Assembly (NCBI GenBank): GCA_017617435.1
Contig: JAFZWF010000008.1
Coordinates: 6,258 to 70,257, forward strand
Source: Bacilli bacterium
Lineage (GTDB): Bacteria; Bacillota_I; Bacilli_A; RF39; UBA660
DNA: 64,000 bases
Direction of reading: 5' to 3'
The notes beneath the pieces are model-generated. The model ran no database searches. It saw only the letters and a list, made by a program, of their open reading frames with translations, and was not told the origin of the DNA. Position numbers and translations under genes: made by a program. Below, piece after piece: positions 4,834-36,948 of this stretch; within the stretch, counting starts at the first letter, position 1, and each line of letters opens with the position of its first letter.

Positions 4834-4867
4834 ATTTTAAATATATGAATATAAAAAAAATATATGT

Positions 4868-5407: not shown

Positions 5408-5435
5408 ATTTCACCTTTTAGGTATTATATGTAAT

Positions 5436-5642: not shown

Positions 5643-5683
5643 AATTCCTCCTTAAATAATTATATTTAATTAGGTGATATAAA

Positions 5684-7422: not shown

Positions 7423-7433
7423 TAAAACTTCAC

Positions 7434-8015: not shown

Positions 8016-8078
8016 AATAAAATCACATATATATTATATAACATTTTTAAAGTAAAATAATATATTTTTTACTTTATT

Positions 8079-8333: not shown

Positions 8334-8392
8334 AATAAATCACCTATTTACTATATATGAATATATAAGTGTAGGTGATTATTACATATAAC

Positions 8393-8424
8393 TAAAAAAG
8401 TGAACACTTTTAAGTGTTCACTTA
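8393..8424 (-). terminator. Rho-independent terminator after the 192-aa gene
   Basis: Near-perfect palindrome aagtgaacactt/aagtgttcactt, followed on the minus strand by a T-run. Confidence 0.75.
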
Positions 8425-9096: not shown

Positions 9097-9133
9097 ATAA
9101 AAAAACTAAAACAATAAATTTGTTTTAGTTTTT
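9097..9133 (-). terminator. Strong rho-independent terminator closing the T4SS gene block
   Basis: Hairpin aactaaaaca...tgttttagtt directly after the coupling-protein stop codon. A-run and T-run on both sides. Confidence 0.8.
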
Positions 9134-11609
9134 AATCTGCAAAGAAATCATCGAAGAATTCATCATCAGATATTAAATTGTCATCAACGATAATACTATC
9201 AGAATCAACATTAATTTTAGGTTTATCACTGTTTGGAATATCTGATGCATCTAAAGTATCAACAACTTCATGTTTAGTTACTTCTGGTTTTATTGGTTCT
9301 GGTTTATTAATGTCAAAATCTAAAGTATCAATATTATTTAAATCAGTAATTGTTTCAACTTTTTCAGGTTTGTTAACAGCATCTGTTTTAGTTTCATTAA
9401 TGTTTTGATTAACATTAATAAATCTATCATCATTTGATTTGTTAATTTCTGGTTTTGTGATTGGTTCGTATACTCCAAGAGGACTATCTAAAACTTCGTC
9501 ATCATCAAGAAGTAAGAAATCATCATCCATATTATCAATATCATTTTTATCAAGTTGTTTATTTTCAACTTTAGGTGATGATTTACTATCATCTGATACT
9601 GTTTCTTCTACTTTATTAGTAGTATCTTCATCAAGAAGTAATGCTTGATTTTCTTTTTCAAGTTTCTCTTTTTCACGTTTTTCTTCTTCATCAAGTTCAG
9701 CTAAGCGTTTATCAATATCCTTCATCATTGCATCAATATCAATTGGTTTACCTGCGCCAAACGGATTAGAACTTGCTGATGGATTACGAGGAGCAAATGG
9801 ATTTGACCCAAATGGACTTCCACCAAATGGTCCACCAAATGGACTTGACATAAATGGATTTCCAGATGGCATTCCGTCTTCTCCATTTTCTTCCATTTGT
9901 TTTTGTTTATAATCCATTACAAACTTTTTAACATCGAAAAGTTCAACAGTATTTCTTGGCCTTACAGGATATTCTGTTTGAGGATATACTTTACCCCAGT
10001 TCATTTGGAAATCTGGAACTAATTTAGTTTTAAATGGATTACCTCTTTGTCTTATTAAAAGCATTTCAAATTGTTTCATTTTTTGTAGATCGGTTACAGA
10101 AATTAAAGGTCTTGTAGCACTTTTATCTTTTTCTTTTGCCTTAACTTCACCACAAAGTTTACTAATTTCTTCAAGAGCTGATAACTCAGTACTCATTAAG
10201 TAAACTAAATTACCACAGTTACCTTTAATTGTATCTCCAACTTCTTTAGTGTATACACTAGTAAGCTGCGAAAAGTTTTGAATAATAAAGGTAAATCTTA
10301 TTCTTCTTGAACGAGCAGCTGAAACCATTGAATCAACATCTTTTAGTGGTGGCATGTTTGCAAACTCATCTAAAATAAAGTTAGTACGATAGTTAAGTTT
10401 TCCACCATTTTCTTGAGCAACGTCGATTAATGTTTCATAACACTGTTTAATAAATATTGTTAAAAGTCCATGATATGTTTTCTTTTCATCATGTATTGTC
10501 ATGAATACTGCAGTTTTTTCACGGCCGATGCTTTTCATATCAAAATCACTTTGCGAAAGCATTTCGTTTAAACTATCACGTGATGAAAAAATTCTTATTT
10601 TTTGTCTAAAGGTTGATAGAATTGAACCTTTAGTATCAGTTGGTGCATTAATTGTATTACTTGCTAAAATATATGCATTTGAATCTTCACCTTTTGAAGT
10701 AAAGTAATCTTGTAAATATGTTTTAGGTCCAAATCTTTCTTCACCTAAAGCAGACATATAGTTAACAGATGATATATTAACTTCTTTAGGTTTAGCGTCC
10801 ATAAATAAACCAAGTGTTAAACCAGAAAAATAGTCAGCTGCTGAATCTTCCCAGAATGGTTCAGCTTTACTATTTGGATCTTTTAAAATATTCATTGCAA
10901 CGTCATCTAGAAGTTCTAGGGCTTTATCTTTATTACCAGCATGGTAATAATTATATGGCATTTCTAGAGGGTTCCAACAGTTTCCATGTTCTGGTTCACG
11001 GAAGTTAAGTAAAACAATGTTATAACCTTTTTCTTTTAACAAGGCAGCTGTTTGTTTATAAATTTCACCTTTTGGATCGGTGATAATCATTGATTCACCA
11101 TTTCTTGCTAAAAGTCTAACCATTGGTTTAACAATGGTTTCAGTTTTACCTGAACCAGTTGAACCAATAATTAAGTTATGGGTTTCACCATTATCAACGT
11201 AAATTTCTTTTCCGTTATTAATTAAAGTTATACCTGCTGCACTTATTTCGTTTGCTTTAGGATCAACTTTTTCTACACCTTTATCATTAATTATTTCTTT
11301 TTTAGTTCCCCACTGAGCATAACCATCAGATTCTTTTTTCTTAAAGTTGATTACTTTATCACCTTTTTTATCTTTACTAAAGATATAAGATGATACACTA
11401 GTAAATACTAATACTTCACCAGCAATAAAAAGACCAATAGTTACAGGTAAATATGGAGGAATAAAAGCTTTAAATGGTAATAAACCATAAAAAGACCCAT
11501 CACGTGAAAGTGATGAAAAATTTAAAACGGCTACACAACATAAATATAAAAGTAAAATTGAATAGCATATAAATATAATAAAGTCTTTTTTCTCTATTTT
11601 AAACTTCAA
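9132..11609 (-). CDS. Type IV coupling protein, VirD4/TraG/PcfC family, with long disordered C-terminal tail
   Basis: Two N-terminal TM helices. Walker A IIGSTGSGKTE, Walker B-type FILDEFANMPPL, and the RSRRIRFTFIIQNFSQL segment typical of the VirD4/TraG family. The last ~270 aa are low-complexity (PFG/NPF repeats, then acidic). Confidence 0.9.
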   Translation of the reverse strand: MKFKIEKKDFIIFICYSILLLYLCCVAVLNFSSLSRDGSFYGLLPFKAFIPPYLPVTIGLFIAGEVLVFTSVSSYIFSKDKKGDKVINFKKKESDGYAQWGTKKEIINDKGVEKVDPKANEISAAGITLINNGKEIYVDNGETHNLIIGSTGSGKTETIVKPMVRLLARNGESMIITDPKGEIYKQTAALLKEKGYNIVLLNFREPEHGNCWNPLEMPYNYYHAGNKDKALELLDDVAMNILKDPNSKAEPFWEDSAADYFSGLTLGLFMDAKPKEVNISSVNYMSALGEERFGPKTYLQDYFTSKGEDSNAYILASNTINAPTDTKGSILSTFRQKIRIFSSRDSLNEMLSQSDFDMKSIGREKTAVFMTIHDEKKTYHGLLTIFIKQCYETLIDVAQENGGKLNYRTNFILDEFANMPPLKDVDSMVSAARSRRIRFTFIIQNFSQLTSVYTKEVGDTIKGNCGNLVYLMSTELSALEEISKLCGEVKAKEKDKSATRPLISVTDLQKMKQFEMLLIRQRGNPFKTKLVPDFQMNWGKVYPQTEYPVRPRNTVELFDVKKFVMDYKQKQMEENGEDGMPSGNPFMSSPFGGPFGGSPFGSNPFAPRNPSASSNPFGAGKPIDIDAMMKDIDKRLAELDEEEKREKEKLEKENQALLLDEDTTNKVEETVSDDSKSSPKVENKQLDKNDIDNMDDDFLLLDDDEVLDSPLGVYEPITKPEINKSNDDRFINVNQNINETKTDAVNKPEKVETITDLNNIDTLDFDINKPEPIKPEVTKHEVVDTLDASDIPNSDKPKINVDSDSIIVDDNLISDDEFFDDFFAD

Positions 11610-12364: not shown

Positions 12365-14512
12365 TTACCCTTCCCATTTTATTAATCCATCATTAAATAC
12401 TTGGTCAAAGTTGCTATACTTTGGTGCATTTTCATAATAATAATCTAAATGTGCAACTTTAAACTTACTTAAATATTCAGAATTATCTTTTATAGATAGT
12501 CTATTAGCCATCAAACCTTCAGATTCATCAATTATAGTATAAATTTCATTTTCAATATCAACATCGACAATTAATGCTACATGGTGGTGCAATTTCATTT
12601 TTCCATTTTTATCTGGATAATTACCATATTTTACAAGCAAGTCTCCAGGCTGCGCAGGTTGAGAAAAATCATTATAGCTTGTAAGAGTAATGTGATTATT
12701 AGATGCATTTTCTATATATTCTTTTGAGGACATTCGAGGCACATTCAAGCCTCCATTATGAAGTGCCCAGTTTGCTGATCCTGAACAATCTAATCCTAGA
12801 TAATAGAACCAATCACCATTTTCATTTTGTGTAGGTGAACCTAATTCTACACCATAATAAGGATTAATTCCATAAAAATTGTCAGTATCCTTTGCTATTA
12901 ATTTTCCGGATTTATCATAAAAAGTATCATGTCCACCTCTATACATGTATGTAACTTTTTTGTTATATTGAGCTAAAGCGTTAATTTGGAATTTCGCAGC
13001 ATTTACTACAGCTTTTCTTGTACCAACTCCAGATTGTTTTATTTGATCTAATAGCTGTTTATTTATGTCTTCTATAGAAGATCCGTTTTCTTTTAATGTT
13101 ACTGCTAAAGCTGTTTTTTCTTGTTTTTCAAAATTTACTCTATTTTTAATTGCATCATCTATATTTAATGTAATTATTCTTTCTGGACATTGATTTGGGC
13201 TTTCTGTAGAAGAAATTGTATCAGGTCCAAGATCGAAAATTCTTTTTCTTATTGATAATATTGTTTTAGTTTGATATAGAGAATATGCTCGTTGATCTAA
13301 GTTTGATTCTTCATACCAATACATTCTGTAATTTTCAGGAGGCATATTTCTTAATGTGCGAATAACACCAGTATTGCCTTCACAAGAGCTTTTGATTACT
13401 TCAGCACGATCTGACCTTCCTAATTTAACCAGTTGTTCTTCTACTACTCTTGAGTAACAACAAGCACCTAATCCTTCATCAGAACATACTACATCTTTAT
13501 CTGTATAATATGCAACATCATCATTCACCCATTCATCGTTTAACCAAGCATATATGCCAAACACATAAGAATAGTTAGTGCTTCCTACGGTATTTCTTAC
13601 AATCCATTTAAAAAATGAATTATTTAAATTATCATTATAAACTCCGTCCATTACAGTTGAAAATCCAGCACATTTAACTAGTTCTTCTCCATTTCCGCAT
13701 CCCATACCATAAAAATTGTTTTTGTACTCAAGACTTGGAATGCATCCAGGGACATAACCTTCAGCTTCAGCTCTTAAAAATATTATTTCGGGGTTAAGAT
13801 TTAATCCTGTTGCTACATCATATATTTCACCAGCTTTATCTGCAAGTTTACTATATGCTTTACGAACTTGTTGTGTAGTACATACTTTGTTTCCAGAAGG
13901 TTGATAAGCATTAACTTTTTCAATAAATTCGCTTCTTGTGTATGGAGTTTGTTTACCAAGAATCATATCTTCGGCAGTCCCTGAGTTTTGAGTTACACAC
14001 TTATAAGTTGTATTAGGAGCAGATCGATTAATAAATCCAGTTGATTCATCTGCATATACTGTTACACTAACCGAAGAAGATATAACAACAAAAATAATTG
14101 CAATTAATAAAAATGATAATATGCCTATACCAACAAAAATTATTTTTGATTTTAGTGTGGGATTAAATAATCCATTTCCAGACATTTTAAATATGTTGGG
14201 AAGACGACCATTATTGTTTGATTCATTGGAAGAATTGACATTTAATGGGTTTGGATTGTTATCTAAGCCTTGTTGATCTGTTTCATTTATAGGTCTGCCA
14301 TAATTATTCATCCAATTAATCATGCCACCACCATATGAATTATGTCTATATGATTTACGAGAATATTGATTTTTCTTATTTAAGCTTGCATTTGAATTGT
14401 TTTTATTAAGGTTATTTTGATAACTATTGAATTGTGAATCATTACTATTTTTGTTGAATGTTTTTTGAGTGTTTAAATTGGAATTATTATTTTGTTTCAA
14501 ATGATTCACCAC
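12365..14512 (-). CDS. T4SS-associated cell-wall hydrolase: C-terminal NlpC/P60 endopeptidase, possible GH73/lysozyme-like middle domain
   Basis: NlpC/P60 signature LGLDCSGSANWAL...PGDLL...HHVALIV. Middle segment AEAEG...NNFYGMG resembles glucosaminidase/muramidase motifs. Asn-rich N-terminus followed by one TM helix. The real start may be the TTG about 12 nt downstream of the tracked GTG. Confidence 0.85.
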   Translation of the reverse strand: MVNHLKQNNNSNLNTQKTFNKNSNDSQFNSYQNNLNKNNSNASLNKKNQYSRKSYRHNSYGGGMINWMNNYGRPINETDQQGLDNNPNPLNVNSSNESNNNGRLPNIFKMSGNGLFNPTLKSKIIFVGIGILSFLLIAIIFVVISSSVSVTVYADESTGFINRSAPNTTYKCVTQNSGTAEDMILGKQTPYTRSEFIEKVNAYQPSGNKVCTTQQVRKAYSKLADKAGEIYDVATGLNLNPEIIFLRAEAEGYVPGCIPSLEYKNNFYGMGCGNGEELVKCAGFSTVMDGVYNDNLNNSFFKWIVRNTVGSTNYSYVFGIYAWLNDEWVNDDVAYYTDKDVVCSDEGLGACCYSRVVEEQLVKLGRSDRAEVIKSSCEGNTGVIRTLRNMPPENYRMYWYEESNLDQRAYSLYQTKTILSIRKRIFDLGPDTISSTESPNQCPERIITLNIDDAIKNRVNFEKQEKTALAVTLKENGSSIEDINKQLLDQIKQSGVGTRKAVVNAAKFQINALAQYNKKVTYMYRGGHDTFYDKSGKLIAKDTDNFYGINPYYGVELGSPTQNENGDWFYYLGLDCSGSANWALHNGGLNVPRMSSKEYIENASNNHITLTSYNDFSQPAQPGDLLVKYGNYPDKNGKMKLHHHVALIVDVDIENEIYTIIDESEGLMANRLSIKDNSEYLSKFKVAHLDYYYENAPKYSNFDQVFNDGLIKWEG

Positions 14513-14573: not shown

Positions 14574-14600
14574 AAAGAAAAAAGCACTTTTTATAGTGCT
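14574..14600 (-). terminator. Rho-independent terminator or attenuator after VirB4
   Basis: Hairpin agcact-ttttat-agtgct overlapping the stop codon, followed by a T-run on the minus strand. A TGnTATAAT-like extended -10 lies downstream, before the hydrolase gene. Confidence 0.6.
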
Positions 14601-16384
14601 TAAAATCCTCCACCTGATCCAAATGAATCAAGTTCTTCTTGAGTTGCAACAACAGATATTCTCATACGTCTTGAACCACAAACGAATAATCCTTCACCTT
14701 GGTTGTAAAACTTAATACCTTCTTTTTCACTTTCATTTAAATCTATTAATTGAGCTAAATCATCAACAGCTTGTTTCTTTAGACCCATTACTAAATAATA
14801 TGAAGCGTTATCAAAGATTGCTTTACCATGCATTATCATGTTTGGTGCAGCAAAGTCTGTTGGTTGTTGCGTAATAATTATTGTACCAGTGTTATACTTA
14901 CGACTACGTCTTTGAATTTGTGCTAAGAATTCAGCACCAAGTTCATTATGACTTGAAAGTAAAACATGAGCTTCATCAACATAAAGAATTGTGTTTACAT
15001 CTTTATCAAGGCATAAGCCCCATGCATATTTCAAAATGTTGAAGAATAATGCATTTTTAATATTTTCATCACTATTCATTATTTCTCTTATATTAAATAC
15101 AATATAATCTGATTGAATATCTAGAGAAGTATGACCAGTGAAATAATATCTTAATTCTTTAACTAATGGTCTAATCTTAAGCTCAAGTCTTTCCATAATA
15201 TCTTTTTCTTGAGTATGATCAGTCATAGATAAAAGTCTACCTTTGATAGTTGCATATACATCATCAAATGTTGGATAATCATTTGATGTAAATTGTGTAA
15301 AATCACTATCAAAATCTATTTTATATCTTTTATATGTATCTTGAACTACTTCACTAAACATTGTAAGAACATCTTCTTCAATAGATGGTGAATAGTATTT
15401 CATAAATGCTTTTAACTCCTGAAGTGTACGAGTTAAAATTGTATAACCTAAACCTTGTTGAATTTCTTCTTCATCAGCATCAAGAACAATTTCAAGTGGA
15501 TTGATCATTCCGAAATCTCCACCTTTACCTAAACTGATAAAGTCTCCACCAAAGTTTTTAGTCATTTCTTCTTGCTCACCTTCTGGGTCAATACATACAA
15601 CTTTGCAGTTATTTCTTAGATGAGTTCTAAGAAGTAGTTTTGCAGCAGTTGATTTACCTGAACCAGATGTACCAAGTAAAATCATGTTAGCATTATTTCT
15701 ATTATGTTCTTTTTTAATTTGATATAAGAATTGGTTAAATAGTACAATACCACCTGAAAAATCTATACCAAATAAACATGAATCTCCTGGATCTTTAATG
15801 CTATCAAATATAAATGGATACATTGCAGCAATTGTTGGAGATGGAATTGGAGTTCCAATTCTATTTTCAATATCTTGTTTAGGGAATATTGGAACAATTG
15901 ATTTTAATGCTTTTTCTTGTTCAAACATTAAAGATACTGCACGCATACCCATTGCATCAAGATATCCACGAACTTGCATTTTTTTAAGTTCTAGATCTTC
16001 TTTATTATCTCCAGTTATCATTAAATGTAATTGGAAATCATATATTTTTGATTGCGTTGCAGCAAGCATAGATACAAATGATTGTAGAGACTCTATATCA
16101 AGACGATATTTTTCTTGCATTGTGTTATCTCTTTCATGTTGATATCTTTCTTTTAAATCTGCAATTTCTTTATTAATCATTTTTTGCATTGATGAAAATG
16201 CGATTGGAATATGTTTTACAACAGCTTTAACTCCTGATATAGAAGTTATACCTGCAAGATAACCTACACCTATTTGTTTTGGATATGTAACAACAGTCAT
16301 GATAGTACAATATTTTCCACTAATCATAAAATCTGTTGGATTAAATTGCATACCTTTAGGTGCTACTTCAGCTTTTAATAACAT
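14600..16384 (-). CDS. VirB4/PrgJ/TcpF-family T4SS ATPase, C-terminal (ATPase) part
   Basis: Walker A LLGTSGSGKST and Walker B ILYVDEAH. Length and segment order match residues about 190-end of single-chain Firmicute VirB4 proteins. Confidence 0.9.
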   Translation of the reverse strand: MLLKAEVAPKGMQFNPTDFMISGKYCTIMTVVTYPKQIGVGYLAGITSISGVKAVVKHIPIAFSSMQKMINKEIADLKERYQHERDNTMQEKYRLDIESLQSFVSMLAATQSKIYDFQLHLMITGDNKEDLELKKMQVRGYLDAMGMRAVSLMFEQEKALKSIVPIFPKQDIENRIGTPIPSPTIAAMYPFIFDSIKDPGDSCLFGIDFSGGIVLFNQFLYQIKKEHNRNNANMILLGTSGSGKSTAAKLLLRTHLRNNCKVVCIDPEGEQEEMTKNFGGDFISLGKGGDFGMINPLEIVLDADEEEIQQGLGYTILTRTLQELKAFMKYYSPSIEEDVLTMFSEVVQDTYKRYKIDFDSDFTQFTSNDYPTFDDVYATIKGRLLSMTDHTQEKDIMERLELKIRPLVKELRYYFTGHTSLDIQSDYIVFNIREIMNSDENIKNALFFNILKYAWGLCLDKDVNTILYVDEAHVLLSSHNELGAEFLAQIQRRSRKYNTGTIIITQQPTDFAAPNMIMHGKAIFDNASYYLVMGLKKQAVDDLAQLIDLNESEKEGIKFYNQGEGLFVCGSRRMRISVVATQEELDSFGSGGGF

Positions 16385-16953
16385 TATGCACTCACCGTCC
16401 CTAATGTAGTTTTATTTCCCCCATTAAAGAAATTATCAAGAAGCATTCTTAAATCATCATTTGATGTTTGAGAAGCACTTAAACCACATGATGCAAATCC
16501 AGATATTAGTGCATGTAATCTTTTTTGTACAATTTCACTTTTCTTTTCTTTAAATAAAATGAAATATTCTGTATCAACAACATTATATTCAGCTGACATA
16601 AAATCATTTGCTTTATTTATGTCTTGCATTATTAATTTTCTTGAAAAGCTATCATGAGTGTTATTGTATTGTATTTGAAGATTTGCAAGATATACATTAA
16701 TATCAACAGGTCTATCTGCAATAATTAACCAGAATTCGTAATCTAGTGAATTATAAAAATTTCTTAGATCATATATAATTCTTTGTTGTTCAGTTTTTTC
16801 AAGCATAAAAATGTTTTTTGGTAAAACTTTAACGCCTGTTACGAAATATCCATCATCTGTTGATATCATACCATTCATTATTTTTTTAACTGGTAACCAA
16901 TCTTCAGAATACTGAGATGTAGCAACTTTACTTTTCATCTTCATTAGTAACAC
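16384..16953 (-). CDS. VirB4/PrgJ-family N-terminal domain encoded as a separate ORF
   Basis: 189 aa. The DWLPVKKIMNGMI...GYFVTGVKVLPKNIF pattern matches Firmicute VirB4 N-termini. Its stop overlaps the next start as TAATG at 16382-16386. Confidence 0.75.
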   Translation of the reverse strand: MLLMKMKSKVATSQYSEDWLPVKKIMNGMISTDDGYFVTGVKVLPKNIFMLEKTEQQRIIYDLRNFYNSLDYEFWLIIADRPVDINVYLANLQIQYNNTHDSFSRKLIMQDINKANDFMSAEYNVVDTEYFILFKEKKSEIVQKRLHALISGFASCGLSASQTSNDDLRMLLDNFFNGGNKTTLGTVSA

Positions 16954-17245
16954 ACCAACCTTTCCAATAATATCTTCTTCTAGAAGTTATAAAATTAAAT
17001 ATATTAGCTATTAATTGCATTATATTATGATAATAAGGAACCGGTAAAACAAGGAATGTAGATATTAAACCAGGGGTAACAATTAATAATAATACTTTAA
17101 AACTAGATGTATGAATAATTGCTAAAGCAATCATTGATATAACAATTCCTGTTGCAAACACTGCTAAATCTATTGGTGTAAAGAAACCAAGTATTAAACT
17201 AGATTTTTTTGAGTTTGCAGGAATTAAATAACCATTATCGTCCAC
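16928..17245 (-). CDS. PrgI/VirB3-like small T4SS membrane protein
   Basis: 105 aa with two TM helices and a basic C-terminus (RRRYYWKGW). Sits immediately upstream of VirB4, as prgI-prgJ or orf17-orf16 do. Confidence 0.6.
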   Translation of the reverse strand: MDDNGYLIPANSKKSSLILGFFTPIDLAVFATGIVISMIALAIIHTSSFKVLLLIVTPGLISTFLVLPVPYYHNIMQLIANIFNFITSRRRYYWKGWCVTNEDEK

Positions 17246-26032: not shown

Positions 26033-26323
26033 CTACCCCTTATATGGACAAACTACTTCTGTACCAGTTTTATCACTACTACTTGAGTAGTAAGTACATC
26101 TAACTTTAGTACAAACTTTAGTATCACCATAATCTTTAAATTCTACGCAAGTGTTTTTAAGCTCTGATTTTGTTGTTTTACAAATTGCTTTTGAACACTG
26201 TGTATTACGATCTAAATTTCTTTTAAGCATAGGCCAAAAAACTGTAAAGAAAAAAGTCGATAGGATTCCTACCGCTATTACAACAAATACAGTTGCGTTT
26301 AGTTCACCAGTCGCCTCTCTCAT
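26033..26323 (-). CDS. Short prepilin-like protein (candidate major pilin 2), 6 Cys
   Basis: MREATGELNATVFVVIAVGILSTFFF: short charged leader, Gly, hydrophobic helix. 96 aa. Confidence 0.65.
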   Translation of the reverse strand: MREATGELNATVFVVIAVGILSTFFFTVFWPMLKRNLDRNTQCSKAICKTTKSELKNTCVEFKDYGDTKVCTKVRCTYYSSSSDKTGTEVVCPYKG

Positions 26324-26351
26324 TTTTTATTAGCCCCTTTTAATTTATTAA

Positions 26352-26600
26352 TTAATTACATGATTTAGATGATGTTTTACCATCTTTAGTCATAGTACAT
26401 GTTCCATTAGAACAACTTATACTATAGTCATCAGTTTCATCTGTATAAGTTTCTCCTCCGTTACTACTTTGGCAAGCATTATTAAGAGCAACACTTGATT
26501 TTATACCAGGTAAAATAAATACAGTAAAAATTAATCCTACAGCAGCAATAGCAACAACAGCTATAACTGTCATATTTAATTCTCCAGTAGCTTCTTTCAT
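26352..26600 (-). CDS. Short prepilin-like protein (candidate major pilin 1), 4 Cys
   Basis: MKEATGELNMTVIAVVAIAAVGLIF. 82 aa. First gene after a consensus promoter, with an AAGGAGG RBS. Confidence 0.65.
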   Translation of the reverse strand: MKEATGELNMTVIAVVAIAAVGLIFTVFILPGIKSSVALNNACQSSNGGETYTDETDDYSISCSNGTCTMTKDGKTSSKSCN

Positions 26601-26735: not shown

Positions 26736-27524
26736 TTATATTCTCATCATTTGAATAACCGCTAGAATTAAAAGCCCCATTACACCAATACCTGTTACAA
26801 CAAGCATGTGCATTGTTTTACTTTCCATTTTTTCAAGTCTATTTTTATATTTTGTATCTCTTGCTTTTTGTTGTAGTGATGAAATAGATCTAGAAAAAGC
26901 TAGTAGTTGTTCTTGTTTTCTTTCTTGTCTTCCAAGTGAAAGACGATAAAGTAGTCTCATCATACGCATTGAGTCACGTACGGGATAAGTTTTTGCAAAA
27001 TTCATATATGGATTAATGGTATCATTACCTGCATTAATTTCATTTACAAGTTCTTGCAATCCTTCTTTAAATATATCAGGTGCATCGTTCATTGATTTAC
27101 CGATTGCAACTGGAACAGTATAGTGCTGAATTAATATTTCTAAACCTTTTAAGTAATGTGGTAACATTTCATCAATATCATTTAAATGTTTTTTATAGTG
27201 ACTTTTAACACTAAAATATTGAAGTTTAAACATTACTACACCTAATATAATAGCTGAAATAATTTTAATATAATTTAAACTTCCAATAAATAAACATAAA
27301 ACTAAACCTGTAACAAGAGCACCATCTCTTAGTCTTCGGTTAAATAAGGCATTAGAGTTTACGCTATCACCATATTTAGCTTTACAATAAAAGTCCCAAT
27401 CACTTTCTTTTATTTTTCTAAATAATAATTCATTATCTTCGAAAAATGTTCTTGAACTTACAGTACCATTTTTAAACATCACGAAAAGAACAATAACACC
27501 TAAAATTAATATTTCGATATACAT
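26736..27524 (-). CDS. TadC-like type II/IV secretion platform protein (T2SSF-like)
   Basis: 262 aa. N-terminal TM, paired central TMs, a ~120-aa cytoplasmic helical domain and a C-terminal TM. Start is coupled to the upstream paralogue; the two ORFs share position 27524. Confidence 0.65.
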   Translation of the reverse strand: MYIEILILGVIVLFVMFKNGTVSSRTFFEDNELLFRKIKESDWDFYCKAKYGDSVNSNALFNRRLRDGALVTGLVLCLFIGSLNYIKIISAIILGVVMFKLQYFSVKSHYKKHLNDIDEMLPHYLKGLEILIQHYTVPVAIGKSMNDAPDIFKEGLQELVNEINAGNDTINPYMNFAKTYPVRDSMRMMRLLYRLSLGRQERKQEQLLAFSRSISSLQQKARDTKYKNRLEKMESKTMHMLVVTGIGVMGLLILAVIQMMRI

Positions 27525-28417
27525 TATTCCACCCCCACATCGCCATTATAGTATTTTTCACCATTAAGTAAAAACATACTATTAATTATAATTATTGAGT
27601 GAAGAATTATTTTTACGTACCATATTTCAATTAATGCAATATAGTTTTCTGGATTAAGTAAAAACTGCATAACCATAACAAGAAGAAATAATATTAAACC
27701 AAATGTTATAAATCTTCGATGGAAGTTTTTACGATCCATTTGGTCTCGGTATACACCTTCAACTAAGGCATCGATATCCATTGCCATATTTTCAAGAGCT
27801 TCACCTGAATCTCTTGCACCTTCTTTAGTTATTTGTAAAAATAATTGATGCATATTTTTAACCATATAATAATCATATTTTTGATTAAAATAATTTATTG
27901 AATCATCAATAGATCCGTTTTGGTAACTCATATCAATCATAACTTTAACATCAGATAAAACGGGATCTTCTAAGATTCCTGAATCTCTAACTCCTTCAAG
28001 AGCTTTTACGAATGACTGAGTTGTATTAAATTCCATTATTACGTTTGTTGTATATACTTGAATTTGTTCAAAAACATATTCACTATATATACGATTACAT
28101 CTTAAATATGCAAGATATGGAATAAATAATATAGCAATAGTTGCATAGAATATAGCCCATAAAATACTATAAAAGTACATATATGCTATACCACCAGCAA
28201 AACCCGCAAAGATTACTACTTGACCAGCATATTGCTTAGCTGTATATTCTTGACCTAATTCCTTTGCTTTTTCTCTTACCATTTTAAAACTATACGGAGC
28301 ATATTTATTATAGATATTTGCAACATTAGCTGCAAAAAACTTATAAACATTTTCACCAGTATTCTTACGGTAAGATATAATAAAGACTACGAGTACAAGT
28401 AAAATTACTAACTCCAT
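27524..28417 (-). CDS. TadB-like type II/IV secretion platform protein (T2SSF-like)
   Basis: 297 aa with the same topology as its neighbour. Directly downstream of the CpaF-type ATPase, as in tadA-tadB-tadC. Confidence 0.65.
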   Translation of the reverse strand: MELVILLVLVVFIISYRKNTGENVYKFFAANVANIYNKYAPYSFKMVREKAKELGQEYTAKQYAGQVVIFAGFAGGIAYMYFYSILWAIFYATIAILFIPYLAYLRCNRIYSEYVFEQIQVYTTNVIMEFNTTQSFVKALEGVRDSGILEDPVLSDVKVMIDMSYQNGSIDDSINYFNQKYDYYMVKNMHQLFLQITKEGARDSGEALENMAMDIDALVEGVYRDQMDRKNFHRRFITFGLILFLLVMVMQFLLNPENYIALIEIWYVKIILHSIIIINSMFLLNGEKYYNGDVGVE

Positions 28418-28458
28418 AAGTTTTATCTTTCCCTTCTTATTATTATATTACTTTATTA

Positions 28459-29751
28459 TTATAACTCTTCTATATCTTGATAAGTAAGATTAGATGCTAA
28501 ATTATTTACACTATTTACAGGATTATTTAAATTATTAATCGCCCTATTTAGTGTTGCACTATTAACTGGTGCTGAAGGAGCAACATTAACATTATTATTA
28601 ATTGGTGCTTCAGCACTTTTGTTTATTTCATTATTATTATTTTCAGTTTTAATGCTAGATGCATCAAAAACCTCATCATTTTGATTTTTTTCAACAAATA
28701 AATTATCTTTAATCATAATTCCTTGAGCTCCAAGGATTTGTCTTAAGAATTTTGTTGGATTGTTATATGTCATTGTTCCATCAAGATTCTTTCTAAAAAT
28801 AATATTTGTTTTAGCTTCGTTATTATCATCAACATAAAATTCTGAAACCTCAACTATTTCACGTTGGAATCTTTGAAGTTCTGCACTCATATAACCTTTT
28901 ACGTGAATACCAATTTGAACATATCTATGAATTGATTTTAAGAACTGATCAATATCTAGATTTGATTCAAGAAGTGAGTACATACGCATTGGAATATTTG
29001 CTGCTCTATCAGAGTGGATTGTTGATAAAATGCAGTGACCTGATGAAATAGAGTTTCTTACACTCATAACAGCTTCAGCAGAACGAACCTCTGATAGTAA
29101 AATCCATCTTGGGTTTTGTCTCATACATGTAACAAGTACATCAGCATAATCTGCAATGTTATTTGTTTTCATGGCAACAATACTTCGGTGTGGAAATATT
29201 CTATCTAAATGTAGTTCTAGAGTATCTTCTATTGTTATTAGTTTTTCGTTTTCAGCAGTATGTGATGCTAAATACTTAACTAGCTCTGTTTTACCTGAAC
29301 CAGTTTCACCACTTACAATAATATTACAGTGACCTTTAACACATGTAATTAAAAATTCTAGTAAATTTTCTGTTACATATTTTTCACTTAATAATTTTTC
29401 TTTATTAAGTCTTATTTTTGCAGGTGTTTTTCTTATTGTAAGTGCTATACCATTAGTAGCTATAGATTCATGAATGAAGTTAAGACGAAGTTCTGCAGAT
29501 TCAGCATCAAGAAAAGGGTGAGCCATATTAAATGACTTACCCATTACATTTGAACACTGGAAAGCAAGCTTTTCAATTAAAGCATTGTTTATCTCAGGTC
29601 TCTCAACGCGAAAAACCCCTTTATCAAGGGTTTTTAAATAGATCTGACCTTGGTTATTATACTCAATGTCAGTTACATTATCATCTTGTAAAAATTCTTT
29701 TATAGGTCCAAAATCAATTTGGGAAAATATAGCATCATTCATGCTAGCCAC
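28459..29751 (-). CDS. CpaF/TadA-type (VirB11-superfamily) secretion ATPase
   Basis: Walker A SGETGSGKTE, Asp/Glu boxes, ILLSEVRSAEA (Walker B region) and His box GHCILSTIHS. Asn-rich ~70-aa C-terminal extension. Confidence 0.9.
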   Translation of the reverse strand: MASMNDAIFSQIDFGPIKEFLQDDNVTDIEYNNQGQIYLKTLDKGVFRVERPEINNALIEKLAFQCSNVMGKSFNMAHPFLDAESAELRLNFIHESIATNGIALTIRKTPAKIRLNKEKLLSEKYVTENLLEFLITCVKGHCNIIVSGETGSGKTELVKYLASHTAENEKLITIEDTLELHLDRIFPHRSIVAMKTNNIADYADVLVTCMRQNPRWILLSEVRSAEAVMSVRNSISSGHCILSTIHSDRAANIPMRMYSLLESNLDIDQFLKSIHRYVQIGIHVKGYMSAELQRFQREIVEVSEFYVDDNNEAKTNIIFRKNLDGTMTYNNPTKFLRQILGAQGIMIKDNLFVEKNQNDEVFDASSIKTENNNNEINKSAEAPINNNVNVAPSAPVNSATLNRAINNLNNPVNSVNNLASNLTYQDIEEL

Positions 29752-29788
29752 CTCTTATTTTTATTCTTTTTATTCTAATATTTTTATG

Positions 29789-30568
29789 TTAATAACTGTT
29801 TGGAACAACAGCTGATTTAGATTTAATTAAAGTTCTAAAATATTCATTACTAATTTCTGTTTGACCAGGATTTGCAGTATATGAGTAGTTTCTTGGAACA
29901 GGGATTATTTTAAATCCAATTAACTGTGCATCATAAAGTAGTTCATACATATCATTTGGAACAGCAAAAAGTAGTACATCTGTAGTTCCTGATTTAGTTG
30001 TTCCATCAAATACATGACGACCTGATGAATCTTTAGCATCTAGAACTTGAATTGATGATATAAATTTACCATAAATAGGTTTTCCACTATCATCATTACC
30101 TTGTAAATATAAATCAATATAATTACCAGGGTACATTGAGTTACCATATGTTAAAGTATTATTAACATTTAAATTAAATACAGTATAACCATCAGGGATA
30201 TCAGCAAATGCTGAATCTGGCATATCTGCAGCTTCTTTTACAATATCTGTATAAAAGACACCGTTAACTGGAACAGATGCTCCAACAGCAATTCTTTTAC
30301 CGATTAATTGTGAAGAATTTCTAATCAAATTAGGTGTTTTTTTAACAAAATCAGAAGATACATTAACATACTTGATATCATCAGATGTTATTTCTTGAGT
30401 TGATCCGATTTCATTTTTAGCAACAGGGATGCTTATCGGTGTTATAGCTTGTTTAACTCGATAATTATAACCGAAGTATAAAACTATAACACCAACAATA
30501 ACACCTAAAATTGTAACAGTATTTTTATTCGATAAGAATTTTTTAATTGTGTTTCCTAAATTACCCAT
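29789..30568 (-). CDS. CpaB/RcpC-like pilus assembly protein (TM + SAF-like domain)
   Basis: N-terminal TM helix, then IPVAKNEIGSTQEITSDDI, a SAF-like beta segment. 259 aa. Position upstream of cpaF matches Firmicute Tad loci. Confidence 0.6.
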   Translation of the reverse strand: MGNLGNTIKKFLSNKNTVTILGVIVGVIVLYFGYNYRVKQAITPISIPVAKNEIGSTQEITSDDIKYVNVSSDFVKKTPNLIRNSSQLIGKRIAVGASVPVNGVFYTDIVKEAADMPDSAFADIPDGYTVFNLNVNNTLTYGNSMYPGNYIDLYLQGNDDSGKPIYGKFISSIQVLDAKDSSGRHVFDGTTKSGTTDVLLFAVPNDMYELLYDAQLIGFKIIPVPRNYSYTANPGQTEISNEYFRTLIKSKSAVVPNSY

Positions 30569-30592: not shown

Positions 30593-31015
30593 TTAGTCTT
30601 CCGTTAGTCCTGTTGGGTTCAACTCCAAGACAGCATCAATTTTATTAACGATATCAAATGTTGATGAATCACCCATAATACTAAACGTATTAGATTTTGA
30701 TGCAACCTTAACAGTTACCTTAGGAGGAGCTTCGTAAATACCATAGAAAGAAATAGTATAAGAAGAACTTAAGTTAGCTGATGCAGCAAATCTACGTAAG
30801 AAACTTTCAATAAATTTTTCTTTTACGATTCTGACTTCACCATATTGACGATAGTAGCCATAATCTACAGCATCAAGCATTGATGCTTCGGTAATTTCTT
30901 TTACCAAATAATAGTCTTGTGTATTTGTTGATGTAATGTTTTGTATAAGTAGCATTACGATAACAACAAATATACCAAGAAGAATTAACCAATAACCCCA
31001 ATATGATTCTTTCAT
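30593..31015 (-). CDS. Prepilin-like or pilus-assembly small membrane protein
   Basis: MKESYWGYWLILLGIFVVIVMLLI shares the M-K/R-E-S leader theme with the four downstream pilin-like genes. 140 aa. Confidence 0.5.
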   Translation of the reverse strand: MKESYWGYWLILLGIFVVIVMLLIQNITSTNTQDYYLVKEITEASMLDAVDYGYYRQYGEVRIVKEKFIESFLRRFAASANLSSSYTISFYGIYEAPPKVTVKVASKSNTFSIMGDSSTFDIVNKIDAVLELNPTGLTED

Positions 31016-31029: not shown

Positions 31030-34000
31030 CTATTTGTAAGCTGGTCCTTGAGGAGCAGATTTAGTTACTCCTTCTTTTGGAAGAGCTCCAACAATTACAC
31101 AAGTATGTTCACCATTCTTACAGTAATCACTTTCGAAGAATGACATTACTTTATCACGTCCATCTAAGCTTGTATGAACTTTTCCGTCTTTTGCAAGTTC
31201 AGTGATTAATTCACTTTCACAAACTTGATAGTCATATTTCTTAGCGTTTTCAATATCTTCTTTTGTATATCTATCTGGATATTTCTTAGCAAGTTCTTCT
31301 ATTTTCTTAGAATAGTTTTCACATTTCATTCCAGAGTTATCACTGAACTGTCCACCCTTACTTCTTATTGTAGAAATAACTGAAGGTGTAAATTCAAATG
31401 AATATTCAGGTTCTTTAGTGATTTCATCACCAAGACCTTCTACTTCTTCAATAAATGCTTCAGCCTTTTGACTTACACTTGGATCTAAGTTAACACCAGG
31501 TGTAACACCATCAGGATTTACATCAGTATTATCGAAGTTACGAACTGTGAATAATAATCCATGAACTGCATCATATGCACATCCATAATCAGAACATACT
31601 AGTGGACAGTTATCACCATCACACTTATAATCTTCGAATTCACAGAAGATACCACGAGATGGATCTTCAACACATTTAACACGACAGTTTGGACAGTTAA
31701 CTACGTACTTACACATGTAATTTCCTTGGAAATCACTCTTTAAGCCATCAATTAATGTTTTACCATCTTTAGTAATTATTCTTCCAGCTTCACCAGTTGT
31801 TAGGTTTTCACCTAAAGCATCGAAGTTGAATGTATAATTATAAATTCCCATACCAGTTTTAAGTTCAACAGGTACAGCAGTTGCATATGGAACTTTTTCT
31901 TCTCCATATTTATTTCTTAAATCATTAAATAATTTAGATTGAAGAACAGTATATTTATCTGTTAATCCATCGCTTCCAACTTTAACTACACCAGTTGAAT
32001 ATTCAGTATAGAATACTGATTCAGGTACTAAATCTAATTTTTTGTTTATTACCTTTTTAGAATAATTAACTTCATTTGGAACAGGTACACTAGTTGGAAC
32101 ATAAGTACCATTATCTCCTAATTTATATGAAGCCATCATTTTATCTAAGTTTTTCTTTTGAGATTGTTCATCTTCAAGAGTAACTTCTTTCCATCCAGTG
32201 CTACAGTTATAGTTATCATCTACATTACCACTACATCTTGATGTTGTAGTTGTAAGTTCTCTTGTATCTTTTTCTGGATTAGTTGGATCCTCAGCTGGAA
32301 CAAGTTTTAACTTGTTACCAGGTAATGCTTTAATATATTCTTCTTCATCATATGTGAATGAAATTTCTGGATCAGCATTATAATCTGAATACCAATCACC
32401 ACCACATGCATTGATGTTATTAATGATTGTATTTAAATCTTTAACAGCTGTTTTAAATGCAGGTGTTGAAGTTAATCCAGCATTATATAATTCAGTAGCA
32501 GTTTTGTATGCTGCATCATAATCTGTATTAAATTTATTATAATCAATATTATCTGTATAACATGATTTAGTAGATTCAACTCTCATACCAAGAGTGAAGT
32601 ATTGACCATTAATTGTGTAACGAGCTCTTGGAATATTAAATGAATAATCTTCTTTACAGTATACCTTACAGTAAGGGTTACCTGTATTTTGTTCAAAATT
32701 ATATGGAACATATTTGTCATTTACATTTTGAGCATCATGTTTTTTAAGTTCGTAAGCTCTGTTACCTACGATACATAAGTTAATGTTATCAGATTCAGTA
32801 ACAGTTCCTTCTTTAACTTCTTTACTTAATTCTACTTCTTGATCAGTTGCTAGAGCTTCTAAACATGAATTTCCGATATCTGATTTAGCACCACATACAC
32901 AGCTATTACTATATATAGAGCACCAATCTTTACCATCTTTTAAACATGCTTGTTTAGCAGCATCTGTAGTAGCTTTTGCCATACATTCTTGTTGAACTGA
33001 ACATTGATCATAAACATTGAAGTGTCTTTCTGTTGGATAACAACATTCACTCATCCATTGTCTATAAGCATTTGTATCATTTTTGTCTGGCATTGTTTCA
33101 GGAGTACATACATTACCACAAGCTAAGTGTTCATCTTCAAGAAGAACTACTCTATTTGGATCTGTAATTTCAGATTCAAATTTAGCTTTACCAATAGTAC
33201 CCATGTATTCACGAGTATTCCATTTGTTATTTGCTTTAATTTGAGCAAGTCTTGAATCACAAGTTAGTGGTTCACAAGTAATTTCTCCATCAATTAATTT
33301 AGCAGCAGGGTTTTGTTCGTTTATAGTTATTTCACCATTAAACTTAGCAATACCAGCTTCTGTTGCATATTCTTTATATGTACCATTTTCTTTAATTTGT
33401 CTTAATCTAGTACTACATACTGGTTTTTCACAAATTATTGTTCTATCTGGACTTTCATTAACTTTCTTAGCTTCAGCTAGATTGTTATCAATCTTTAAGT
33501 TAAGAAGTTTTGTAATTCCACTCCATCCTTCAGTAGTTTGAAGTTGAACTAATTTACTTAATTCAGTTGTAAATGGTTCACCAATATGATCTTCACATAC
33601 AGTAGGTTGATAACAGTATAGTGTAGAACCAGAACATACTGCAGGTCCGTCAGGAATATTAACAGGAAGAGATGCTTTTACTTTTTCACAAGCTTCCTTA
33701 GAGTTATATTCACCCTCAACTTCACTACATGCTGTACATACGATTAAGTTATCACTACCTTTTCTTATCTTCTTAGCTTCATCAGTATTAATTAAGTTAA
33801 GTTTTGAAACTAACTCTTTCCAGTTCTTAGCTTGAACTAATTGATCAATTTCATTTGTATAAGTTTCAGTTGTGTGATCAGTACAGTAAGTTTTTGTGTT
33901 GTTAATATCACACTTAACATTACCATTATTATTTTCAATCTTAACAACTTCTTCAATTTTACCGATATTATATTTAACCATGAAGTTGTTACATGTTAAA

Positions 34001-36948: not shown

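Follow-up and report, generated by a model that had tools for sequence, protein, structure and literature searches.

A giant cysteine-rich exported protein at a Tad-type pilus locus of a Bacilli bacterium: a probable fibrillar adhesin with a candidate thioester head

We lean towards reading the giant protein described here as a Sec-exported fibrillar adhesin, with a thioester-type head, a Cys-capped stalk and a C-terminal domain that holds it on a Tad-type pilus or on the pilus base. The adhesin reading as such is well supported, and the docking of the protein at the pilus tip is something we infer. An adhesin had already been suggested by the initial annotation, made from the DNA letters, and the idea has gained from the Cys/Gln signature of thioester domains (TEDs) and the order of the motifs, from the fast divergence of head and stalk, from the variable length of the stalk and from the synteny with Tad genes. 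The analogues named at that time, PrgB and PilV, were less fortunate, and closer ones are TIEpLS20 and the tip adhesins of the PilC/PilY1 type.

The gene is located in a stretch of 64,000 nucleotides, here called the window, and its product can be divided as follows.

31030..36948, (-) strand: gene for the 1972-aa secreted Cys-rich protein, with an ATG start (NCBI MBO4600796.1, 'hypothetical protein', from the MAG 'Bacilli bacterium')
36868..36948, (-) strand: Sec signal peptide, residues 1-27, with predicted cleavage between VFA and F at an AxA-type site and no lipobox; 3 Cys
35584..36867, (-) strand: N-terminal domain, residues 28-455, apparently a divergent class-II-like thioester domain as judged from motifs, profile comparison and a homologue model; 4 Cys (0.9%)
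33106..35583, (-) strand: stalk, residues 456-1281, with an initial cap at 456-460 and then 14 modules with Cys caps, arranged as A B A B A B A C C A B' A D D; 44 Cys (5.3%)
31033..33105, (-) strand: conserved Cys-rich C-terminal domain, residues 1282-1972; 29 Cys (4.2%), with about 20 nearly invariant Cys columns in the family

The same protein, identical, is present on 12 metagenome contigs, and the record of the organism, an uncultured gut bacterium, comes from metagenomes only. The 1972-aa secreted reading frame with about 80 Cys that was first noticed is confirmed, with exactly 80 Cys or 4.06%. The repeat region given earlier as nt 33109-35586 does correspond to residues ~455-1280, and the two further Cys clusters were found again, with 10 Cys between residues 1301 and 1400 and 9 between 1701 and 1800. 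Motif scans and hydrophobicity agree with the earlier description of a signal peptide without LPXTG, C-terminal transmembrane segment or lipobox: the signal peptide MMKNIKKVLCCLILLITMFATCNKVFA, followed by F, is kept in homologues with the pattern ..[KN]VFA before F, no LPx[TSA][GAN] sorting motif occurs anywhere in the protein, which ends in ...QGPAYK, and there is no hydrophobic segment beyond the signal peptide, at the C-terminus or elsewhere. A lipoprotein was rejected, as the lipobox regular expression had no match and the Cys in the signal peptide is not retained in the relatives P0003 and P0004. Nor does the protein have the N-terminus of a type IV pilin or pseudopilin (a class III signal with the hydrophobic helix retained), but an ordinary Sec signal. 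No Pfam or NCBIfam domain was detected in it, sequence searches of the PDB gave no match with the protein or with an 82-sequence profile of its family, and tblastn against plasmids found nothing.

The N-terminal part, residues 28-455, looks from its sequence like a divergent class-II-like thioester head, in which three positions stand out.

36676..36690, (-) strand: YCLDP motif with Cys88, the candidate thioester Cys, fitting the TED motif [YFL]-C-hydrophobic-hydrophilic; Cys in 136/136 relatives
36526..36528, (-) strand: codon of Arg141 in the helix motif K-S-L-A-I-R; Arg in 135/136 relatives, in register with TED T-Q-x-x-h-W, with Arg for Trp
35665..35679, (-) strand: YQRFI motif with Gln425, the candidate thioester Gln, fitting TED h-Q-hydrophilic-h-h; Gln in 135/136 relatives, aligned with YQRL of TIEpLS20

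All three residues occur together in 135 of the 136 full-length relatives, and the family profiles, [YF]-C-[LIMV]-[DN]-[PA] at the Cys and Q-[RNK]-[FMY]-[ILV] at the Gln, agree with the TED motifs given in the literature, [YFL]C-phi-zeta and phi-Q-zeta-phi-phi (PMC6194298). The family does not retain the third TED motif, TQxxhW, of the helix beside the bond; it has [TK]-x-x-A-h-R, with an invariant Arg for the Trp and without a conserved Gln. Formation of the thioester bond does not require this motif (PMC6194298). The Pfam TED model PF08341 does not match the giant protein, and its gathering score of 22 is passed by two of 42 scanned relatives, P0095 with 23.5 bits and P0031 with 22.2 bits, the match beginning in both at the invariant Cys of the family. 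Of the 136 relatives, 109 have an odd number of Cys in the mature protein (binomial p = 7e-13), which fits a single conserved unpaired Cys. In the AF2 model of a homologue that has no stalk, P0003 (pLDDT 78.9), a beta-barrel with the strands leading to the Cys is followed by a helical bundle, a beta-sandwich and a strand that returns beside the Gln, an order that fits class II. Foldseek with the whole 1097-aa P0003 model against the PDB returned no TED structure among the 50 matches listed and no match of any kind at E <= 1e-3, the weak matches being Ig-like pilins and adhesins with CfaE as the best listed (E = 1.3e-3), and against BFVD it returned one match of low quality.

The nearest known protein to this head is TIEpLS20, the product of gene 34 of the Bacillus subtilis plasmid pLS20, a class II TED adhesin that is needed for conjugation in liquid to be efficient (PMC8092201). 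Both are large multi-domain proteins encoded within a conjugation-type cluster, and both have a Sec signal and then an N-domain with YC[IL]DP and YQR[LF] in the same order. Relatives of TIEpLS20 are annotated with PF20610 and PF26764. Alignment by hhalign of the N-domain (79 sequences) with the TIEpLS20 family (6 sequences) shows a marginal similarity (P = 1.2e-4, probability only 55%, 217 columns), in which the elements pair collinearly, YCLDP opposite YCIDP, the helical parts and then the beta-sandwiches opposite one another, and YQRF opposite YQRL. The giant protein differs in the Arg that replaces the Trp of the third motif and in its Cys-to-Gln spacing, which is 337 aa in comparison to 188 aa in TIEpLS20 and to 171-204 aa in solved class II TEDs (PMC6194298), and this longer spacing is explained by extra helices in its head. 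These two differences speak against a TED. The class II TEDs BaTIE, SaTIE and EfmTIE86 have, like the giant protein, one Cys and one Gln as sole universal residues (PMC6194298; PMC4450167), with the Gln after an inserted beta-sandwich, which is predicted in the case of the giant protein, and the head placed N-terminally on a long stalked surface protein.

Cys88 could instead be a catalytic nucleophile, of a cysteine peptidase, a transglutaminase or an amidase, and the protein a secreted enzyme or toxin on which the pilus locus relies, for instance for wall remodelling, but this we find improbable. The invariant Cys and Arg and the odd Cys count would suit such an enzyme, as would the NlpC/P60 domain that is inserted in one relative, P0105, and no peptidoglycan hydrolase was recognised in the T4SS cluster. 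[quoted passage not shown] The only Pfam family matched by more than one relative is that of the TED HMM, not of a peptidase HMM, and a stalk that varies in length suits a function of reach and not an enzyme. In the adhesin that we prefer, Cys88 and Gln425 of the distal head would form an internal thioester, which a nucleophile on the surface of the target would attack, giving a covalent attachment.

When the stalk is cut after each cap, 14 modules result, which measure 44-75 aa and carry 2 or 4 Cys each. The caps have the form h-x-C-x(2-8)-C, hydrophobic-x being present before every one of them, and their spacing is 58.6 +/- 7.7 aa (CV 0.13). There are four subfamilies of modules, A (m1, 3, 5, 7, 10, 12), B (m2, 4, 6 and in addition m11), C (m8, 9) and D (m13, 14), and within them pairwise Smith-Waterman comparisons give z-scores of 5-17.5 against shuffles. 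The repeated units of which the initial annotation had counted at least 13 are real; caps are found in all of them, but the L-N-L...E-A-K-K helix that it had ascribed to each is a property of type A only. A short spacing between Cys, taken by itself, was rejected as a non-random feature (17 observed, 18.3 +/- 2.5 in shuffles), and the non-random signal in the stalk is module homology and periodicity. In the DNA coding for the stalk there are no tandem repeats, so that a recent duplication of modules at the DNA level was rejected and the modules are old. Two segments of the stalk deserve their own entries.

34660..35007, (-) strand: modules m4+m5, residues 648-763, a B-A pair modelled with pLDDT 88.6 and pTM 0.78
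34249..34698, (-) strand: hypervariable patch, residues 751-900 (m6-m7), with 42 of the 62 differences from the 96%-identical variant P0005

In the model of the pair, the B module is beta-alpha-beta-beta, and the A module has four short helices and a beta-hairpin that bears the cap. Foldseek of this di-module against the PDB gave matches at chance level alone, and a profile of the stalk modules found nothing at E <= 1e-3 in a collection of 5.8 billion proteins, a database for whose size the modules are too short. Compared with known domain families, the modules have no counterpart in Pfam and none among the folds of the PDB. Related stalk modules were found in P0001, P0002, P0006 and P0010, and across the family the linker measures between about 10 and 877 aa (median 55), the 877 aa of the giant protein being the longest seen. 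In most relatives the stalk is short or missing, and since the modules are absent from most family members they are most likely a spacer and not a binding unit. We picture the stalk as a stiff spacer whose length can evolve, and each module would have one or two disulfides within it, the C-x(2-8)-C cap included. The stalk of TIEpLS20 consists in contrast of CnaB-type domains, and TIE stalks in general are cross-linked by isopeptide (CnaA/CnaB) or ester bonds; the giant protein has no Cna domain in Pfam, and has alpha/beta modules in which disulfides are presumed.

It is very doubtful that the Cys, or some of their clusters, bind metal or stay reduced, in which case the caps would not be structural staples. 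The organism is probably an anaerobe, short gaps between Cys are, as said, no commoner than in shuffles, and CxxC-like spacings occur in the cluster at 1746-1790, whose equivalent region in P0003 is modelled poorly, with pLDDT <50 at 920-941. However, the number of Cys is even in 14 of 14 modules, those of type A carry the two Cys of the cap alone, which are too few for a metal site, and the protein is exported from a locus whose other exported proteins are also rich in Cys, while the cytoplasmic ones are not. The high Cys content that had attracted attention at the outset is shared by the whole family (median 3.6%) and by these other exported proteins, and is not confined to the modules. A 2010 study by Daniels et al. 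in J Biol Chem is said to have reported that Firmicutes keep Cys out of their exported proteins. No thiol-disulfide oxidoreductase was seen in the scanned part of the window.

The C-terminal domain is new and has no match in Pfam or the PDB. It ends with a short motif that is found throughout the family.

31033..31047, (-) strand: C-terminal pentapeptide GPAYK, family consensus GP[SA][WY][KR], exactly terminal in about 95% of the members

In the P0003 monomer model this tail is a coil with modest pLDDT. TIE proteins are anchored by sortase through LPXTG, and in the giant protein, which has neither this motif nor a C-terminal hydrophobic segment, the C-terminal domain of 690 aa, rich in Cys and with its GPAYK end without counterpart in TIEpLS20, would stand in for the sortase signal of the classical TIE adhesins by docking to the pilus apparatus encoded beside it. 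What is encoded there is listed below.

36945..37670, (-) strand: upstream, 241-aa protein with a signal peptide, a C-terminal transmembrane anchor and a basic tail, its stop overlapping the start of the giant gene (ATGA)
30593..31015, (-) strand: DUF5411 protein, 140 aa, with a pilin-like N-terminus (MKESYWG and a hydrophobic stretch), always directly downstream of the giant gene
26736..30568, (-) strand: Tad-type machinery overall, as specified in the next four lines
29789-30568, (-) strand: CpaB-like
28459-29751, (-) strand: CpaF/TadA ATPase
27524-28417, (-) strand: TadB-like
26736-27524, (-) strand: TadC-like
26352-26600 and 26033-26323, (-) strand: two small Cys-containing pilins
25502-26017 and 24955-25485, (-) strand: two TadE-like pseudopilins
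23944-24939, (-) strand: conserved 331-aa cytoplasmic protein
22957-23795, (-) strand: two paralogous VirB2-type T4SS pilins
20040-22848, (-) strand: Cys-rich exported membrane proteins
17265-20021, (-) strand: conjugal transfer protein of the MMCAP2_0566 family
14600-17245, (-) strand: VirB3-like, TrsD-like and VirB4
9132-11609, (-) strand: VirD4 coupling protein

The order of the 241-aa gene with signal peptide and transmembrane anchor, the giant gene, DUF5411, CpaB, CpaF, TadB and TadC is the same in 9 of the 9 loci with enough flank. The giant gene had earlier been placed at the head of a pilus/T4SS locus; its synteny with Tad genes is strict, and it is the second gene of the operon, after the 241-aa gene. 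The most probable way of docking would be that the extreme C-terminus, ...GP[AS][WY][KR], inserts into a pilin-like partner (DUF5411 or TadE-like) in the manner of PilC/PilY1, where a minor pilin is complemented by the strand at the very C-terminus, which is functionally critical (PMC12918778). The PilC/PilY1 proteins of type IVa pili and CpaL/TadG of Tad pili share with the giant protein a Sec signal peptide, an N-terminal adhesin part that is diverse and in some cases very long, a conserved C-terminal domain, several disulfides (presumed ones in the giant protein) and minor-pilin-like gene neighbours (PMC12918778). Unlike PilC/PilY1, it belongs to a monoderm host, and no pilin-like domain was detected in it; a beta-propeller of the PilC/PilY1 type was not found by Pfam or PDB sequence search, and no PilY1 was among the 50 Foldseek matches listed.

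The same adhesin might also sit off the pilus, a possibility that we place on the unlikely side. The 241-aa type-I membrane protein, or else the T4SS, would then keep it at the cell surface, where it would act as a mating-pair or aggregation adhesin like PrgB or TIEpLS20, and the neighbour would be its anchor or a surface-exclusion partner, as in PrgA/PrgB. The overlap of the two genes, the membrane anchor of the 241-aa product and the adjoining T4SS genes speak for this, and so does the fact that this syntenic neighbour diverges as fast as the giant protein, with 27-30% identity between loci against 48-78% for the machinery. Nevertheless, the genes directly downstream are pilus genes, the N-terminus of DUF5411 is pilin-like, and a conserved pentapeptide strictly at the end is a feature more usual in proteins that insert a strand into the fold of a partner than in those tethered to a membrane (PMC12918778). 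A role in the contact of donor and recipient, as proposed for PrgB of pCF10 and PilV of the R64 thin pilus, would be shared with the giant protein, but PrgB is anchored by LPXTG and has a polymer-adhesin domain, neither of which is present here, and PilV is itself a pilin with a tip encoded by a shufflon, which the giant protein is not.

The Tad genes adjoin the T4SS genes on the same strand, the T4SS being Mollicutes-ICE-like, and the most likely task of the adhesin on its pilus would be to contact the recipient or target cell for this adjacent T4SS. A VirB4 pseudogene was considered and rejected, as the three collinear ORFs resemble a natural split into VirB3-like, TrsD-like and ATPase proteins. 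An origin of the window from a plasmid or phage was likewise rejected, since it is flanked by chromosomal housekeeping and sporulation genes. Tad pili serve colonisation in bifidobacteria, and colonisation of the host or its mucus by the Tad pilus, unrelated to DNA transfer and with the T4SS as a coincidental neighbour or a separate module, would be another purpose, although an unlikely one in our judgement. In its favour, pathogens have TEDs that attach covalently to host proteins (PMC4450167), the organism is on record from metagenomes alone, and no relaxase or integrase was recognised among the scanned ORFs of the window, with its housekeeping and sporulation flanks. Against it are the contiguity of the Tad and T4SS genes, which are linked again in two related loci (L007, with VirD4, and L008, with T4SS pilins), and the existence of a TED adhesin with a role in conjugation (PMC8092201). 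Between colonisation and contact for the T4SS, the target is what differs, and the mechanism is the same.

The giant protein belongs to a large unannotated family, which in public metagenomes comprises at least 579 clusters when grouped at 50% identity and whose members are named 'hypothetical protein' or left unnamed. Across loci it is 22-28% identical, while the pilus machinery keeps the 48-78% given above; its N-domain and stalk diverge much faster than this machinery, and within the protein the N-domain is less conserved than the C-terminal domain (19.5% and 29.0% mean identity, respectively). Head, repetitive stalk of variable copy number, anchor and fast evolution are features of fibrillar adhesins (PMC9210967), from which this protein departs in that its stalk modules match nothing in Pfam or the PDB and its anchor domain is new.

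As a more specific version, which we offer tentatively, the protein would be a thioester warhead on a disulfide-stapled and tunable stalk, sitting at the tip of a monoderm Tad-type (type IVc-like) pilus with its GP[SA]W[KR] end in a DUF5411 or TadE-like pilin, and the pilus would be the device for mating-pair formation of the Mollicutes-ICE-like T4SS. If this is true, a thioester adhesin would be seen on a type IV filament for the first time, and TEDs would have a way of presentation independent of sortase, in a lineage where the exported proteins of the locus depend unusually on disulfides. The Cys-rich exported proteins of this Firmicutes-like lineage also raise the question of the route of oxidative folding. 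DUF5411 receives a candidate role as a pilin-like adaptor, the stalk modules and the C-terminal domain are fresh targets for structural work, and the modules might possibly be used as small disulfide-locked spacers in protein engineering. A family without annotation gains a mechanism that can be tested, covalent adhesion through an internal thioester and without sortase, and it links three things that were not connected before: TED adhesins, the Tad-type pili of low-GC Bacilli-like gut bacteria, and conjugation machinery of the Mollicutes type.

The giant protein (31030-36948, minus strand, 1972 aa) consists of three parts and belongs to a large family without annotation. It is called in identical form on 12 metagenome contigs from several samples and is deposited as MBO4600796.1, a 'hypothetical protein' of a MAG named 'Bacilli bacterium', and is thus no assembly artefact; the source organism is uncultured. 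The initial annotation described a secreted protein with about 80 cysteines and without a recognisable anchor, and this holds. There are 80 Cys (4.06% of 1972 aa): the signal peptide contains 3, residues 28-455 contain 4, residues 456-1281 contain 44 and residues 1282-1972 contain 29. The signal peptide is of Sec type (...NKVFA, followed by F) and is kept in the homologues, and the giant has no LPXTG-like motif, no lipobox match and no second hydrophobic segment beyond the signal peptide. A search against Pfam and NCBIfam gave no domain, and sequence search gave no relative with a solved structure. Only three homologues came up when 5.8 billion proteins were searched with a word index; in the alignment with these the N-domain (residues ~28-450) and the C-domain (~1282-1972) are conserved, and the region between them is very variable in length and wholly absent in the relative P0003. 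A profile made from both conserved domains was then run in an exhaustive search of 1.84 billion cluster representatives, which gave 579 proteins at E <= 1e-3, 241 of them at E <= 1e-30. The best 150 relatives have a median length of 1128 aa and a median Cys content of 3.6%, and about 95% of them end exactly in GP[SA][WY][KR]. The linker from the N-domain Gln to the CC motif of the C-domain has a median of 55 aa in the family and exceeds 300 aa in three relatives only, the 877 aa of the giant being the longest, so the Cys-capped stalk is a derived expansion in a small clade and not the family core. In another relative, P0105 (1514 aa), an NlpC/P60 peptidoglycan-hydrolase domain (residues ~725-825, E = 3.8e-6) is inserted between head and C-domain, a hint that this site can take up a functional cargo directed against cell walls.

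The N-domain looks like a divergent thioester domain (TED). Cys88, Arg141 and Gln425 (numbering of the giant) occur together in 135 of 136 full-length relatives, the Cys in the profile [YF]-C-[LIMV]-[DN]-[PA] and the Gln in Q-[RNK]-[FMY]-[ILV]. Cys and Gln are the sole universally conserved residues of TEDs, and both family profiles fit the published bond-forming motifs, [YFL]C-phi-zeta and phi-Q-zeta-phi-phi (PMC6194298). The third TED motif, TQxxhW, is not kept; in the same register stands [TK]-x-x-A-h-R, with the Arg invariant. Pfam TED (PF08341) was the sole family to match more than one of 42 scanned relatives, passing its gathering score of 22 bits in P0095 (23.5 bits) and P0031 (22.2 bits), and both matches start at the invariant Cys, which is Cys68 in the former and Cys71 in the latter. 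The giant itself did not match this model. When a 79-sequence N-domain profile was compared by hhalign with the pLS20 conjugation adhesin TIEpLS20 (L016:2823-5147) and five of its relatives, the result was P = 1.2e-4 at a probability of 55%; a permissive alignment was collinear over 217 columns and paired YCLDP/YCIDP, the next helices, the beta-sandwich and YQRF/YQRL. The structure of the N- and C-domains was read from an AlphaFold2 model of a homologue 32-39% identical to the giant, the stalk-less P0003 (pLDDT 78.9, 82-sequence alignment). Strands ending at the Cys are there followed by a helical bundle with the Arg, a beta-sandwich and a strand beside the Gln, the same order as is given for class II TEDs (PMC6194298). 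The number of mature Cys is odd in 109 of the 136 relatives (p = 7e-13), as would be expected if one conserved Cys stays outside the disulfides. The Cys-Gln spacing is however 337 aa in the giant against 171-204 in solved class II TEDs, and the 50 Foldseek matches listed for the whole 1097-aa P0003 model included no TED entry and consisted of weak matches to Ig-like pilins and adhesins (CfaE, EbpB, BcpA, CNA; best E = 1.3e-3). For these two reasons, and because the giant has no Pfam match, we use the label 'TED-like': the two defining residues are present and the fold is putative.

An invariant Cys88 could also be catalytic, which would make the protein a catalytic-Cys enzyme, but this is less likely, since the residue that is invariant along with it is a Gln in TED context and there is no invariant His or Asp. 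With a TED-like head, an internal Cys88-Gln425 thioester would attack a nucleophile on the target, probably a recipient cell or a host surface, and thereby fix the filament or cell covalently. Such attachment has precedents in SfbI and Cpa (PMC4450167), and for TIEpLS20 there is a genetic requirement for it (PMC8092201).

When the central region is cut after every h-x-C-x(2-8)-C cap, 14 modules of 44-75 aa result, all with 2 or 4 Cys. The proposal of at least 13 Cys-capped modules was thus right, but the L-N-L...E-A-K-K motif ascribed to them in general belongs to one subfamily. By their Smith-Waterman scores, set against composition-preserving shuffles, the modules fall into four subfamilies.

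Subfamilies of the stalk modules
A: m1, 3, 5, 7, 10 and 12; z 5-12; carries L-N-L...E-A-K-K
B: m2, 4 and 6, with m11 as a short B-like orphan; z 6-12; four Cys
C: m8 and 9; z 17.5
D: m13 and 14; z 10.9

Their order is A B A B A B A C C A B' A D D, with a cap period of 58.6 +/- 7.7 aa and hydrophobic-x before every cap. Short Cys-Cys gaps are not in excess (17 against 18.3 +/- 2.5 in shuffles), so the non-random signal of the stalk lies in module homology and periodicity and not in spacing per se. The array has no tandem repeat at the DNA level and must therefore be old. An HMM of type A, built from modules of the giant only, matches a module in the relative P0001 (E = 2e-8) and also in P0002, and related B, D and 'E' modules were seen in P0001, P0002, P0006 and P0010, including a threefold B-D-E super-repeat. 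The B-A pair m4+m5, modelled by AlphaFold2 from an alignment of 20 paralogous and orthologous modules, came out with confidence (pLDDT 88.6, pTM 0.78) as a beta-alpha-beta-beta B module and an A module of four short helices and a cap-bearing hairpin; Foldseek found nothing similar to the pair in the PDB. As type-A modules contain the two cap Cys only, a cap disulfide would be the simplest pairing, and a stalk of disulfide-locked modules would provide reach, with module number as an evolvable parameter. The giant and its 96%-identical variant P0005 have 62 differences, 42 of which fall in residues 751-900 (m6-m7; 34249-34698, minus strand). This is a local mosaic patch, which suggests that the stalk has undergone recombination or diversifying selection there.

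The C-domain is better conserved than the N-domain (mean identity 29.0% against 19.5%) and has about 20 nearly invariant Cys; no fold was recognisable by sequence search or Foldseek. Nine Cys, all nearly invariant in the family, lie within the 45 residues 1746-1790 (31129-31260, minus strand; CKYVVNCPNCRVKCVEDPSRGIFCEFEDYKCDGDNCPLVCSDYGC). The equivalent stretch of the homologue model has pLDDT <50, and the Cys may form either a knotted disulfide cluster or a metal site.

The gene order 241-aa neighbour, giant, DUF5411, CpaB-like, CpaF/TadA ATPase, TadB, TadC is common to the window, the three close homologues and five distant genome loci.

36945-37670, minus strand: 241-aa neighbour with signal peptide and C-terminal TM anchor, its stop overlapping the start of the giant
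37827-38486, plus strand: Rce1-like CPBP intramembrane protease, divergent, upstream of the 241-aa gene here and in the close relatives L001, L003 and L010
24955-26600 and 30593-31015, minus strand: two small Cys-containing pilins and two TadE-like proteins, downstream of the Tad genes, and DUF5411

Rates differ strongly within this synteny: across the distant loci the Tad machinery is 48-78% identical, the giant 22-28% and alignable in the C-domain only, and the 241-aa neighbour 27-30% where detectable. One of the loci compared, L005 (CAZYXO010000006.1), is labelled 'uncultured Muribaculaceae' and has Tad proteins 53-78% identical to those of the window, but its G+C content of 26% is far too low for Muribaculaceae and the contig is probably mis-binned. 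DUF5411 (MKESYWGYW...) has the N-terminus M-[KR]-E-[AS]-x-G plus hydrophobic helix in common with the pilins and TadE-like proteins and may therefore be pilin-like; it has been noted earlier within a predicted pilus/T2SS-like operon of gut Clostridia (PMC9523054). Among the genes of the locus no prepilin peptidase could be recognised. By consensus matching only, a promoter-like site that has an extended -10 directly precedes the 241-aa gene, and there is no minus-strand terminator-like site from there down to 29800.

Beyond the pilins, the cluster goes on to encode two T4SS pilins of VirB2 type, exported membrane proteins rich in Cys, a protein of the MMCAP2_0566 family, VirB3-like, TrsD-like and VirB4 proteins of Mycoplasma-ICE type, and VirD4.

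22957-23795, minus strand: tandem VirB2-type 'T4SS_pilin' paralogues (PF18895, weak matches), with almost identical membrane-helix halves and different Cys-rich C-terminal tails
14600-17245, minus strand: three ORFs covering the VirB4 model NF045975 (894 positions) collinearly
12365-14512: ORF of 715 aa, no family

VirB2-like pilins are said to be unusual in monoderm T4SS (PMC12102498). The three VirB4 ORFs cover positions 2-96 (105 aa, VirB3-like with two TM helices), 94-277 (189 aa, also a weak TrsD match) and 298-891 (594 aa), and their junctions overlap by 26 nt and 1 nt. The arrangement seems to be a natural split and not a frameshift. The flanks (1-9003 and 37827-64000) are housekeeping and sporulation genes (YunB, RmuC, CotZ, SpoVE/FtsW, TyrRS, LeuRS, GH31), and the ORFs that were scanned included neither a recognisable relaxase nor a recognisable integrase; the T4SS may be chromosomal and co-opted, or its relaxase may be unrecognisable, for instance the 715-aa ORF. 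Cys enrichment is locus-wide in exported parts (20040-26600, minus strand).

Cys content of proteins of the locus
Two pilins: 4.9 and 6.2%
T4SS pilin paralogues: 3.4 and 5.1%
514-aa exported protein: 3.9%
415-aa exported protein: 2.4%
CpaB-like and DUF5411, also exported: 0%
Cytoplasmic ATPases and 331-aa protein (9132-11609, 14600-16384, 23944-24939, 28459-29751): 0.3-1.2%

No thiol-disulfide oxidoreductase was seen in the scanned part of the window.

We propose that the conserved C-domain and the invariant terminal peptide would dock the giant to the apparatus of Tad type, for which PilC/PilY1 is the best precedent. PilC/PilY1 likewise has a Sec signal, a variable N-terminal adhesin, a conserved C-domain and disulfides; its extreme C-terminal beta-strand is buried in a minor pilin, and in Tad pili CpaL/TadG supplies the strand (PMC12918778). 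In our monomer model the last ~14 residues are coil, at modest confidence. The main rival explanation keeps the adhesin but has it anchored via the 241-aa membrane protein, whose gene overlaps that of the giant. The giant is not a PilY1 homologue, as no propeller was detected, nor a sortase-anchored TIE protein, as LPXTG and Cna or ester domains are missing, and it is no pilin either. It would act in the manner of TIE or fibrillar adhesins and is inferred to resemble PilY1 in this as well. Its stalk modules and C-domain match nothing described, and the protein would combine a head of TED type with a new chassis and a new genomic setting.
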